Source of the DNA: a virus
Lineage: Duplodnaviria > Heunggongvirae > Uroviricota > Caudoviricetes
DNA: 12,246 nt
IMG/VR virus record: IMGVR_UViG_2548876950_000019
Reading direction: 5' to 3' (one strand)
Shown: positions 1 through 3,000 of the stretch, piece by piece
How the letters are laid out: each line of letters starts with the position of its first letter
Numbering within the stretch: the stretch's first letter is position 1
Program-made: the position numbers

Positions 1-3000
1 GTGCTTACCGATACAAAATTAAAAAACCTCAAGCCGCAGGACAAACTGTACAAGGTCTCCGATCGTGACGGGCTGTATGTAGCTGTGCTTACGTCAGGCA
101 CGGTCTCGTTTCGCTACGACTACCGTATCAACGGTCGCCGCGAAACGCTGGTAATCGGGCAGTATGGGCGTGACGGTATCAGCCTGGCAGAAGCGCGAGA
201 AGAACTGATTGCTGCAAAGAAGCTGCTTAAAGCAGGCCAGTCACCGGCTGCGGCTAAACGTGACGGTATCAAAAAGATTCGTGGTGCCGAGACGTTTGCG
301 GTACATACCGACAGTTATATGAAACACGTCATCCTGGCTGACAGTACCCGCGCAATGAAACAGGCGGTGATCGACCGGGACATACTTCCGGTTCTTGGCA
401 ATAAAATGATGGCTGAAATTACCACATCGATGGTTCGTGATTTGTGTGACCGGATTGTCGAACGCGGTGGCCGGGCAACAGCAGTGCAGGCCAGGGAGAT
501 CATCAGTAGCGTATACCGTCACGCCAATGACCGTGGTCATGGTTTGTTTAATCCTGCGGCTGACATTAAACCTTCGTCTATCGCCATATTTAAACCACGA
601 GAGCGAACACTGACACCAGAAGAAATTGGCCTGTTCTTCCGCACGCTGGATGCCATTGGTGCTATGGGCACTATGAAAATGGCTTTAAAACTGGTGCTTA
701 TCACTATGGTTCGTAAGGGCGAATTCACCAATGCATCGTGGGATGAAATAGATTTTAAAAAATGGACATGGACAATTCCTCCAGACCGCATGAAGGGAAG
801 CCGGGCGCACGTTATTTACCTGCCTAAACAGGCACAGGATATATTGGTCGGGTTGCAGATGTGCGCTGGTGGAAGTGAATATCTGGTTCCTGGTCGTTAC
901 AATTTCCGGAAGCCATTATCTAATGCCGCGCTGAACTCTCTGATCGACAGAACGGTGAAAATAATAAATGAAGATGGTGAGCATATTCAGGACTTCACTG
1001 TACATGATATGCGCCGTACAGCCAGTACGTTGTTGCATGAGGCTGGTTATCCTTCAGACTGGATTGAAAAAGCTTTGGCACATGAGCAGAAAGGTGTGCG
1101 CGCCGTATATAACAAAGCGGAATACGCCAGACAGCGCGCCTACATGTTGCAGCAGTGGGCCGATATGATTGATTCCTGGATTAACGGGGAGCATACGGAT
1201 CTGATTCCGTTCTCCCCGTCGAAGTTTGAGAAGTGGATGGCGGGGGAATAACGTTTAATTATTCTGCTGATTTTCTTCCATCTCGGCTTCTGCTGCCAGT
1301 GATTCAATTTTATCTGCGAATATTGCTGACAGTGTTGCAAATTCAGCATCAGTGACAGCGGGAACAGGAACAAACCTGATCCCGCTGTGTGCAAGCATGT
1401 TTGCAGTTTCAAGGCATTTCCTTAAATCTGCTGGTGATGCCCTGTTCATGCTGCACGCTCCCGCCCCTGGTTGTCTGTTGGTGACAGAGGAGCATTGCTG
1501 AATGCATTTGTTAATCCGCCAATATCCAACGCGTATCCTGGGTGTAGTTGCACGGCCGGGTCTTCGCACTGATTACCCCAAACATCGAAGCCATGAGACG
1601 ACTGGCGGGCGAACAGTTCAATGCGAGAAACATCGCCTAACAATTGCACAAGTTTTTCACGAACGATATCTGGTTTTCTTGAATGCTCAAGCCGCGGTGC
1701 GGTAAATGACTGAACGATCCCTGCATTAATGCGCGGAGGTAGTTTTCCCTTAACTGCAAACAGGCAATCTTCACTATTGGCGCGAGTCATGTGTCCCATA
1801 CCCATAACCAGTTTATCTGGTTGTCGACTACCACATTTTATCCACGTGAAGCCCTTCATGGTCATCAGACGGAATCCCCAGGCTTCAACAACTTTTAGTG
1901 CTTCGAGTGGTTGTGTTGGCACCCACCACATGGCCAACAGACAGTTTTCATCGGCCAAATCCCACACAGGAAGGCGGCAGATATCCAGCACACTCATAAC
2001 TGGATATTTAAAACCGGCACCGCGATTACCATCTGCGGCTTTGTCCCGGTATGCCCAGGGTGGATCTGCATAGATTAGTGTGTATTTCTTAGTCATAAAC
2101 CACCCCACAACATCCTATGCCGCTATAGTCGCCACGGCGAAGGCCGTTACCTTTTGTGATACATTGGTCCCTGCGAACCGCGATCCTTGCACGCTCAACA
2201 TCACCAGAAGCAACATCCATACACTGAAGCCAAAGGTGAGCGGCAATGCGGAACTGCCCTTTTTTCTCTCTTTCAATCGCGCGTTTTTCGATCTCTATCG
2301 CCGCAGGAGTAACGGCGACAATCTTTGACGGACTGCGCATTGAAACCTTGTTCATGTGATATTTTTCAAGTCGGCTTAACTTTCTCACTTAATCCAACCC
2401 TCTCTGAAAATTAATGCCAGCAGATAAAGCCATGCTGAAACAGAGGCCAGGAATAAGTACCATCCTGACCATTTGCTCCAGTGCCTTAGCAGCGCACTCA
2501 TGCAGCGTTGCTCACAGGACGATATACACGTTGCTGAACAGGAGGTTTTTTACCCTGGAACTCTGCCGGGCTTGCTGCCTGACGTTCATCAAGCCAACGC
2601 TCAACTTCATCACGGTTCCATGCGCAGCGTTTATCGGTGATATACCAGCGTTTAGGAAATTCCCCTGCGCGCTCCATACGGTCGATAGTGCTCCATGACA
2701 GTGGCACCACCGCCAGGAGTTCCTTCTTACCTAATGCACCTTTCATAAATACCTCTCTTGGTTGCAGTGCGGCGCGCGTGGCGCCGCGGTGGTGGTTACA
2801 TAGATGTTTCGTTTAATTCTTCCCGACGAACGCTGTAAACGTCGGTGGCTTTTGCCAGCAGTTCGTCATCATCTGAAAGTTTTTGTGCAATGTATTTGTA
2901 AGCCTTATCCAGTTCGGAGACAGTGCTGTAATTCATCGCTGCGCTGGTAAAGGCCATCAGCATTTCTTCTGGCTCACGGCTATCCGCTTTACGCGTTTGC

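Follow-up and report, generated by a model that had tools for sequence, protein, structure and literature searches.

The integrase-proximal end of a phiV10-like prophage: an MT-A70 methyltransferase gene between PerC/ANR-family and Orf63-family genes

The three integrase-proximal genes of the window (the whole 12,246-nucleotide stretch of viral DNA analysed here, IMG/VR record IMGVR_UViG_2548876950_000019) are real but ordinary: they are already annotated as accessory genes of a common phiV10-like prophage of E. coli. The reading preferred for them, with a probability of roughly 0.6, is that the end of the early-left operon would carry a Dam-like methyltransferase, an Orf63-like pro-lytic gene in an exchangeable slot, and a regulator of the PerC/ANR family. 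Judging by its sequence, the methyltransferase is most likely a Dam-like DNA N6-adenine methylase that works alone and is specific for GATC, a reading offered as a best guess.

A common prophage and its leftward operon

The window represents a phiV10-like (Uetakevirus) prophage and is 98.5% identical to phage phiV10. This nucleotide identity was obtained against NC_007804 over positions 1200-2800, where the two differ only by point substitutions. PhiV10p32-p34 have the same gene order, overlaps, and annotations (DUF1382 family protein, DNA methyltransferase, and PerC-type transcriptional activator), and one RefSeq E. coli genome, which matches the region at 100%, has it annotated as DUF1382, MT-A70, PerC, and AlpA. 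RecE and RecT form one fused CDS in the phiV10 annotation but two ORFs in the window. The prophage was found in 561 of 5426 complete E. coli genomes, or about one in ten.

All of the ORFs named in the original prediction exist, on the minus strand (Table 1). As it had stated, the methyltransferase gene is situated between int and an AlpA-type excisionase gene, and its stop and start codons overlap those of its neighbors, with which it is probably translationally coupled. The predicted ATGA at 1449-1446 is formed by the ATG of the 64-aa ORF (1449-1447) and the TGA of the methyltransferase (1448-1446), with a Shine-Dalgarno-like GGGAG about 7 nt upstream of the ATG. An additional gene, absent from that description, lies between ORF 2089-2388 and the excisionase gene. 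This 38-aa ORF is joined to its neighbors by ATGA and GTGA overlaps, is annotated as p35 in phiV10, as gp32 in epsilon15, and also in Tyrion, and is kept in other genera at 54-82% identity.

Table 1. Features at the integrase end of the window and the candidate promoter of the leftward genes
Feature	Position	Strand	Basis and remarks
P4-type tyrosine integrase	1..1251	+	Pfam Arm-DNA-bind_3, Phage_int_M, Phage_integrase; convergent with operon
DUF1382 / lambda Orf63 homolog, 64 aa, acidic; last gene of early-left operon	1255..1449	-	Pfam, phrog, and PDB matches
Orphan MT-A70-family (beta-class) N6-adenine methyltransferase, 216 aa	1446..2096	-	Pfam, phrog, PADLOC, homologs
PerC/ANR-family small protein, 99 aa	2089..2388	-	Pfam PF06069, phrog_868
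38-aa ORF, one predicted transmembrane helix	2385..2501	-	Translation; annotated in phiV10, epsilon15, Tyrion
AlpA-family excisionase/regulator	2498..2746	-	Pfam PF05930, 24.2 bits; phrog_66
Sigma-70-like promoter, candidate	4980..5008	-	Consensus match only, 10/12 hexamer positions

The junctions of the operon are all stop/start overlaps of 4-8 nt, and the stop codons of the 64-aa ORF and the integrase gene are separated by 3 nt. The best candidate promoter upstream of the whole leftward gene string is found just downstream of the terminator of the repressor gene, and a sequence scan detected no promoter-like or minus-strand terminator-like sites between it and position 1255. Within the three genes the scan returned no site, and its total number of sites was no greater than in shuffled sequence. 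From this anatomy, that is, the overlapping junctions and the lack of a predicted internal promoter or terminator, we infer that the genes are made together upon loss of the repressor or upon infection. In a temperate podophage of the phiV10 type, positions 1255-2388 would form the part of the early-left operon farthest from the promoter. This operon would be the equivalent of that of lambda PL, silenced by the repressor in the lysogen, with the order exo, recT, xis(alpA), 38-aa ORF, perC-like, methyltransferase, and orf63-like.

The ORF at 2089-2388 is present ahead of the methyltransferase gene, as described, and its product belongs by sequence to the small helical regulators of the PerC/ANR family. 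It matches Pfam PF06069 (30.1 bits, cut-off 22.6) and phrog_868 over residues 1-99 (E 6e-62), and scores 23.6 bits against the NCBIfam ANR model, under the cut-off of 32. The gene starts with a GTG that forms a GTGA overlap with the upstream ORF, whereas RefSeq phiV10 starts it at an internal ATG at 2355 (88 aa). Conservation of the N-terminal sequence RKLSRLEKYH in epsilon15 and Tyrion favors the long, 99-aa form. The helical core motif G-(L/F)-(W/Y/F)-R-x-A-A-x-x-W-L is shared by the window protein with PerC of EPEC, Pch of EHEC, and the ANR (Aar) family. Nevertheless, the window protein differs from them in its modest score, in an additional ~30 aa at the N-terminus, and in a tail, YSG(I/V), that is conserved at the C-terminus. 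It is also encoded in a phage early operon, unlike a virulence-plasmid or LEE regulator.

The methyltransferase and its probable target

Profile searches confirm the orphan MT-A70 adenine methyltransferase that had been predicted. The protein matches Pfam PF05063 at 79.3 bits (cut-off 23.9) over profile positions 1-172 of 172, as well as phrog_359 (E 1e-120) and PADLOC MTase_II (E 6e-77). Profile searches and PADLOC found no restriction endonuclease anywhere in the window, the methyltransferase being the only PADLOC match. The sole nuclease encoded is a RecE-like recombination exonuclease, paired with RecT, and the genes around the methyltransferase (DUF1382, PerC-like, 38-aa ORF, and AlpA) include no cognate type II endonuclease. 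The proposed limits of 1446-2108 require revision, as the start is ATG 2096 rather than GTG 2108. This start is chosen because PA8 gp5 and epsilon15 gp29 are homologous from MTKKYTLIYADPPW onward, and phiV10 is annotated likewise. With ATG 2096, the proposed overlap with ORF 2089-2388 persists, but it comprises 8 nt (ATGACTAA) and not 20.

In the 216-aa protein, the catalytic motif IV (DPPW, residues 11-14) lies close to the N-terminus and the SAM-binding motif (IELFAR) close to the C-terminus, which is the beta-class motif order. IELFAR aligns with LEIFAR of Tetrahymena MTA1, and the protein aligns to the structures of MTA1 and METTL3, while the tail from about residue 190 to 216 is lineage-specific. 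With only positions 117-321 of its 329 matched, phrog_359 suggested a longer or fused ancestor. This was rejected, as only rare PerC-methyltransferase fusions (P0003 and P0002) were found. In P0003, the loss of 1 nt from a T-run accounts for the fusion, and no obvious slippery sequence is seen at the junction.

By sequence, the window enzyme is a member of the Dam-like clade of prokaryotic and phage MT-A70 proteins that includes M.EfaBMDam, PhiBZS1_p32, and M.EcoGV; its identity to epsilon15 gp29 is 78%. Expression of p32 of Serratia phage vB_SspM_BZS1 alone in dam- E. coli rendered the DNA resistant to MboI and sensitive to DpnI (PMC7556043). A passage in the same article cites M.EfaBMDam of Tn1549 as GATC-specific (PMC7556043). 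M.EcoGV, which is described in a passage of the PA8 study as highly similar to PA8 gp5, is stated there to methylate GATC in vivo when overproduced (PMC10810198), and an entry elsewhere lists it as GATC (PMC6602927). BZS1 p32 is of the same family and size as the window enzyme and is likewise encoded in a leftward early operon by xis/int, with an ANR/PerC-superfamily gene directly upstream. However, it is only 40% identical (E 1e-48) and has a 23-aa insertion that is missing from the window protein.

On the model of these characterized homologs, the methyltransferase would keep fast-replicating phage DNA fully methylated at GATC. Full GATC methylation would shield the DNA against methylation-sensitive GATC restriction, and it may also modulate gene expression or induction. 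For both M.EcoGV and BZS1 p32, methylation at GATC was observed upon overexpression, which can cause off-target methylation. Dam is already present in E. coli, so a GATC enzyme looks partly redundant. The window contains 36 GATC sites against 47.7 +/- 6.6 expected, a number that is unremarkable and uninformative.

Alternative readings of the methyltransferase

Unexpectedly, MT-A70 genes in several unrelated phage lineages repeatedly have a PerC/ANR gene immediately upstream; no description of this recurrent adjacency was found in searchable papers. It is conceivable, though doubtful, that PerC/ANR-family proteins, including a wHTH-PerC fusion of ~148 aa, are dedicated partners of phage MT-A70 Dam-like methyltransferases, in a conserved two-gene epigenetic module of temperate phages of Enterobacterales. 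The two proteins might constitute a functional unit in which the PerC/ANR-like protein either controls the expression of the methyltransferase in the manner of a C-protein or sets the target of the enzyme by binding to it, a proposal that seems rather unlikely. Such a unit could parallel PNB-2 in PA8 or the DNA-binding partners of eukaryotic MT-A70 enzymes.

Among 67 IMG/VR loci found by the PerC profile alone, 48 have a same-strand MT-A70 homolog at most ~2 kb downstream, and in 17 of those 48 the two genes overlap by 4-11 nt, although the counted loci are phylogenetically related and the counts therefore overstate independence. For comparison, methyltransferase homologs occur overall in just 512 of 50,697 phage records. 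When the PerC proteins are clustered at 60% identity, 8 of 12 clusters are accompanied by a methyltransferase, five of them with direct overlap, but four clusters have none. The methyltransferases in these loci are 40 to 97% identical to that of the window. The pairs were found in two settings, one being the early-left operon of Uetakevirus and the other the lambdoid nin region, and they display three architectures (a 99-aa type, a 74-81-aa type, and the wHTH-PerC fusion). In BZS1, too, the gene immediately preceding that of the methyltransferase is of the ANR family (50.9 bits). However, the BZS1 enzyme p32 is active and GATC-specific without this neighbor. Furthermore, no PerC gene lies within 3 kb in 23 of 35 enterobacterial species loci, nor in the P0032 lineage, SopranoGao, yong1, or PA8. 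In most Uetakevirus relatives other genes separate PerC from the methyltransferase, and natural fusions are rare and resemble 1-nt deletions.

A second alternative is an RNA enzyme like gp5 of Stx phage PA8 (M.EcoPA8orf6770P). Purified PA8 gp5, the closest characterized relative, was on its own only weakly and non-specifically active on DNA, also on DNA whose GATC sites are unmethylated, but together with PNB-2 it preferred 16S rRNA in 30S subunits (PMC10810198). Higher spontaneous induction and virulence depend on the DPPW motif of gp5 (PMC10810198). The window enzyme might similarly methylate host 16S rRNA and raise spontaneous prophage induction, with a substitute for PNB-2 or with none. 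This is improbable, even though the two enzymes share the DPPW motif, 83% identity over 187 aa, and a location near the integrase end of the prophage, and PA8 likewise has a DUF1382 gene (gp4) directly downstream, whose product is 47% identical to that of the window.

PA8 belongs to the Sepvirinae rather than to Uetakevirus, and it encodes PNB-2 (gp6), which is the source of the RNA preference. No tblastn match to PNB-2 was obtained in the window even at E 10, and the ORF upstream of the methyltransferase gene, PerC-like in the window, has no similarity to PNB-2. The alignment with PA8 gp5 stops at residue 187, after which the tails are unrelated, and it is the C-terminal ~27 aa that the authors link to PNB-2 association (PMC10810198). 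Of the parts of a PA8-type holoenzyme, the window thus has the catalytic subunit, but neither an adjacent PNB-2 nor the C-terminal region. The idea that PNB-2 is a divergent PerC or wHTH-PerC protein was also tried and rejected; hmmsearch and profile-profile comparison yielded nothing, as the hhalign probability did not exceed 7% and the match was confined to the generic start of the wHTH. The small wHTH protein of Tyrion has no detectable PNB-2 likeness. A further argument against an RNA enzyme is that GATC methylation of DNA by other members of the clade requires no partner.

It is very unlikely that the window enzyme is a sequence-non-specific adenine methyltransferase like M.EcoGII or Hia5. 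The protein has little beyond its ~190-aa catalytic core and no obvious target-recognition domain, and the behavior of PA8 gp5 alone in vitro is compatible with this possibility, but the characterized prokaryotic MT-A70 members are GATC-specific. M.EcoGII resembles the window enzyme in being an orphan adenine methyltransferase of the beta class that is encoded on a prophage and silent in the lysogen. It was nonetheless rejected as a counterpart, as its motifs (DPPY ... FxGxG) and size (349 aa) place it in a different family, and it is no relative at the sequence level.

The 64-aa gene and its exchangeable slot

The 64-aa ORF had been considered to be of unknown function, but its product is a member of the lambda Orf63/DUF1382 family, which has a solved structure and published pro-lytic developmental phenotypes (PMC5575149, PMC10869804). 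It matches Pfam PF07131 over profile positions 1-60 of 60 (105 bits, E 2e-30), as well as phrog_292, and is about 48% identical over 61 aa to the NMR structure of lambda Orf63 (PDB 8DSB, E 8.5e-13). The reading frame is open up to a GTG at 1569, and the DUF1382 match begins exactly at the ATG. The strength of this match, and the fact that the ORF is intact in 57 of 59 IMG/VR loci with a copy, indicate real genes rather than chance ORFs.

Lambda Orf63 is a dimer with two helices and one strand, and its deletion phenotypes involve the timing of induction and lysogenization, not restriction (PMC5575149, PMC10869804). The two proteins are similar in length and both are encoded by early leftward-operon genes. 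The lambda gene is located between exo and xis, with orf60a and orf61 as neighbors, whereas the window copy closes the operon, following xis and abutting int. By homology, the 64-aa protein would be pro-lytic, pushing the lysis-lysogeny decision towards lysis. In some relatives (L211, L226, and L237), the DUF1382 gene is found upstream of the methyltransferase gene.

The contents of the slot beside the methyltransferase gene were counted in 80 near-identical IMG/VR loci in which the methyltransferase is at least 98% identical. DUF1382 occupies the slot in 59 of these, a NinI-like phosphatase in 18, and an 82-aa protein in three. No DUF1382 gene accompanies the methyltransferase in any of the 35 enterobacterial species-level loci. 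The slot swaps and the absence in other genera rule out an obligate partnership of DUF1382 with the methyltransferase; the 64-aa gene is exchangeable cargo. A lack of conservation of the small ORFs, which was to count against the original prediction, is thus found for the 64-aa ORF as a methyltransferase partner, but not for the PerC-like ORF.

Phage orphan methylases often protect against restriction, and the three genes had been proposed as an anti-restriction or accessory module. They are indeed accessory genes, but anti-restriction is only one plausible role, and the closest characterized relatives of the methyltransferase are BZS1 p32 (GATC) and PA8 gp5 (16S rRNA). An anti-restriction module in which the acidic 64-aa protein (net charge about -6, predicted to be co-expressed early) serves as a DNA mimic or other restriction inhibitor alongside the methyltransferase is highly improbable, given the induction and lysogenization phenotypes of the Orf63 family, the free exchange of the gene for a phosphatase or an 82-aa protein, and no PADLOC match for the 64-aa protein.

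Each of the three genes falls in a described family, and the residual value of the region is small. If the two-gene module were true, the pair at 2089-2388 and 1446-2096 would be one instance of it and PNB-2 of PA8 would be a functional analog, and PerC-like phage proteins would gain a concrete role if the adjacency is functional. The literature on this methyltransferase clade is in conflict between Dam-like GATC marks on DNA and a 16S rRNA modification that controls prophage induction. Prophages of the phiV10 type offer a natural PNB-2-free version of the enzyme with which this conflict between DNA and rRNA may be settled.

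Gene string between int and the excisionase gene

The ORFs at 1255–2746 are tightly packed on the minus strand, and the junctions read along the string are ATGA, GTGA, ATGACTAA, and ATGA. An MT-A70 gene and a 64-aa ORF between int and the excisionase gene are present as the original prediction described them, as are the upstream ORF that overlaps the methyltransferase and the ATGA shared by the methyltransferase stop and the 64-aa ORF start. The ORFs listed there are correct, but a 38-aa ORF was missed and the methyltransferase had been started at GTG 2108. Similarity to relatives opens at MTKKYTLIYADPPW, which places the start at ATG 2096, in agreement with the phiV10 annotation. 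The 38-aa ORF has a 4-nt overlap with each neighbor and is conserved, being annotated in phiV10, epsilon15, and Tyrion, with 54–82% identity in other genera.

Features of the gene string and of the early region around it
Feature	Position	Strand	Remark
Integrase	1-1251	plus	convergent with the gene string
64-aa acidic ORF	1255-1449	minus	DUF1382
MT-A70 methyltransferase	1446-2096	minus	
99-aa ORF	2089-2388	minus	PerC family
38-aa ORF	2385-2501	minus	one transmembrane helix
AlpA-type excisionase	2498-2746	minus	
RecT	2796-3677	minus	
PD-(D/E)XK exonuclease	3674-4495	minus	
Sigma-70-like promoter	5008-4980	minus	
Ead/Ea22-like protein	9328-9804	plus	rightward arm
sRNA-Xcc1 match	11111-11199	plus	RF02221
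AntA-type antirepressor	11239-11862		

On the minus strand upstream, the sole good sigma-70-like promoter from a promoter scan lies just past the terminator of the repressor gene, and a terminator scan of that strand from this promoter down to 1255 found no terminator-like site. From this anatomy, the trio of PerC-like, methyltransferase, and 64-aa genes can be read as lying at the distal end of the early-left operon. The stops of the integrase (1249–1251) and 64-aa (1255–1257) genes are convergent with 3 nt between them, and no terminator was predicted at 1249–1257, so leftward early transcription would enter int antisense.

Across region 1200–2800, identity to Escherichia phage phiV10 (Uetakevirus) is 98.5%, and 17 phage records match at least 80% of the region. 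One RefSeq E. coli chromosome carries it with 100% identity, and among 5426 complete E. coli genomes it is found in 561, where PGAP names a DUF1382 family protein, an MT-A70 family methyltransferase, a PerC family transcriptional regulator, and an AlpA/HTH regulator. What remains of the window is an early region of the usual temperate-phage kind, with RecT, a PD-(D/E)XK recombination exonuclease, a CI-like repressor, an AntA antirepressor, DnaT-like and lambda-P-like replication proteins, and Ea22-like and DUF551 proteins. RecT and the exonuclease are separate ORFs with a 4-nt overlap, unlike RefSeq phiV10, in which RecE-RecT is annotated as a single 1761-nt fusion CDS. The sRNA-Xcc1 match is full-length, scores 69.3 bits in Rfam (gathering score 53; E 3e-11), and lies just upstream of the antirepressor gene. 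With an Ea22-like gene on the rightward arm and an Orf63-like gene (the 64-aa ORF), this phage has homologs of lambda "exo-xis region" genes dispersed across its two arms.

The methyltransferase and its target

The Pfam MT-A70 match of the methyltransferase spans the entire domain (79 bits); the protein carries its DPPW motif at residues 11–14 and can be aligned with the structures of Tetrahymena MTA1 and human METTL3. No endonuclease gene was found in the window to pair with it, and it is therefore an orphan, as had been proposed. M.EcoGII, the first candidate for the enzyme, was rejected as a member of a different family. The family is widespread: 2920 protein clusters match with an E-value of at most 1e-20, and 512 of 50,697 phage records contain a homolog. 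In Uetakevirus-like prophages of Superficieibacter, Pseudescherichia, Kluyvera, Citrobacter, Scandinavium, and Klebsiella, the enzyme likewise lies between a PerC-like gene and int; genes for DUF1317, an HNH protein, or other products often separate it from the PerC-like gene.

Published evidence on this clade pulls two ways, toward GATC in DNA and toward rRNA. The enzyme shares 83% identity with gp5 of Stx phage PA8, which alone shows weak, non-specific activity, co-purifies 1:1 with PNB-2, the product of the upstream gene, and in this complex prefers 16S rRNA; the raised spontaneous induction of PA8 requires an intact DPPW motif (Gong, Chakraborty and Koudelka, PMC10810198). On the DNA side, M.EcoGV, highly similar to PA8 gp5, methylated GATC in vivo upon overproduction according to the same paper, and is listed as GATC-specific in PMC6602927. 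Furthermore, p32 of Serratia phage BZS1, an MT-A70 enzyme 40% identical to that of the window, rendered DNA MboI-resistant and DpnI-sensitive when expressed alone in dam- E. coli (PMC7556043), and its authors also refer to M.EfaBMDam of Tn1549 as GATC-specific. A similarity search of the whole window found no PNB-2 homolog, and the C-terminal region, tied to PNB-2 by the authors of the PA8 study, differs between PA8 gp5 and the window enzyme. For these two reasons the GATC reading is favored over rRNA: the enzyme would act alone, as a Dam-like GATC DNA methylase (probability about 0.6). That it is instead an rRNA methylase, as its identity to PA8 gp5 might suggest, is quite improbable on the same two grounds.

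The tail of the methyltransferase (residues ~190 to 216; window 1446–1535 (-), …NAFSNAPLSPTDNQGRERAA) is common to phage Tyrion and absent from epsilon15 (192 aa) and PA8. Its motif NAPLSPTDNQG resembles the C-terminus (…NAPLAPTDNQGKKK) of a small ORF that stands by itself downstream of the enzyme gene in a Kluyvera prophage (L088 3525–3755). Very tentatively, the tail could be a relic of an old gene fusion.

An exchangeable slot downstream of the methyltransferase

The 64-aa ORF, originally of unknown function, is a full-length DUF1382 protein (105 bits) and matches PDB 8DSB at E 8.5e-13. This structure is phage lambda Orf63, equated with DUF1382 by its authors (PMC10869804) and about 48% identical to the window protein. 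Deletion of orf63 makes prophage induction delayed and less efficient and increases host survival (PMC5575149, PMC10869804). By homology, the 64-aa protein most likely has a similar pro-lytic role. No evidence pointed to a DNA-mimic or anti-restriction role, the latter having been suggested for the trio.

The slot, the gene position directly downstream of the methyltransferase, was surveyed in 80 IMG/VR loci with a methyltransferase that shares 98% identity or more with that of the window. The gene starting at the ATG that overlaps the methyltransferase stop is DUF1382 in 59 loci (57 intact, 2 broken), a NinI-like Ser/Thr phosphatase in 18 (L008, L011, and L017 among these), and an 82-aa protein in three (L013, L015, L016); phage PAS61 carries the phosphatase version. 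These are three unrelated cargo genes with the same start ATG in otherwise near-identical prophages. By sequence comparison, the ATGA junction (window 1445–1449) is a recombination joint. The slot counts indicate that the 64-aa gene is real and selected as a family, yet exchangeable cargo here. The idea of an accessory trio thus holds for an orphan methylase amid accessory genes, but it had missed this interchangeability and the three described families.

DUF1382 was found beside the enzyme in none of the Uetakevirus-like loci of the six genera. In PA8, a DUF1382 gene 47% identical to that of the window comes just after the methyltransferase. In three Uetakevirus-like contigs (L211 2873–3025, L226 2828–2980, L237 2828–2980) DUF1382 stands between the PerC-like gene and the methyltransferase, and in L215 (2867–3019) it follows the PerC-like gene and the methyltransferase is absent. 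Given the downstream copy in PA8 and the upstream copies in relatives, DUF1382 recurs near the methyltransferase without being fixed to it.

PerC-like genes beside MT-A70 genes

The 99-aa ORF scores 30.1 bits against Pfam PerC (cut-off 22.6), matches phrog_868 end to end, and scores under the cut-off of the NCBIfam ANR model. An overlap of a PerC-family gene with the start of the methyltransferase gene also occurs in unrelated lambdoid prophages ("nin-region" type) from Buttiauxella, Dryocola, Acerihabitans, and Lonsdalea; the PerC-family proteins there include short forms and wHTH-PerC fusions (about 150 aa). This wHTH-PerC family (~148 aa; L212 2162–2695, L190 2192–2701, L103 2546–3004, L102 2567–3010) has an N-terminal winged helix and a C-terminal PerC-like domain. 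Its genes adjoin MT-A70 genes, or stand one ParB-like gene away, in lambdoid nin regions, and no description of the family was found in the literature searched.

In a reverse survey, an IMG/VR scan seeded with the PerC profile alone (67 loci), 48 loci had an MT-A70 homolog on the same strand, at most about 2 kb downstream, with an overlap of 4–11 nt at 17. Of the 12 PerC clusters, 8 had the methyltransferase and 5 the direct overlap. The methyltransferases at PerC loci are 40 to 97% identical to that of the window. In BZS1, the gene immediately upstream of the methyltransferase gene is a bona fide ANR-family member (50.9 bits), and its product is weakly similar to Uetakevirus PerC-like proteins. 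Although the pairing at 48 PerC-seeded loci and the gene order in BZS1 speak for a real functional link, such a link is unlikely. An obligate partnership is at odds with the activity of BZS1 p32 without its ANR neighbor, with the absence of PerC at 23 of 35 enterobacterial species loci and in several phages, and with the lack of homology between PNB-2 and PerC; PerC-methyltransferase fusions, moreover, are rare accidents. The adjacency may simply be inherited synteny among related early operons. Two rare natural in-frame fusions occur in public assemblies (P0003, 297 aa; P0002, 263 aa); loss of one T from the GGTTTATG run at the gene junction accounts for P0003, probably a mutation or assembly error.

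The feature is already known and annotated, in phiV10 and in E. coli genomes. Its residual interest lies in whether the methyltransferase targets DNA or rRNA and in the adjacency of PerC/ANR and methyltransferase genes.
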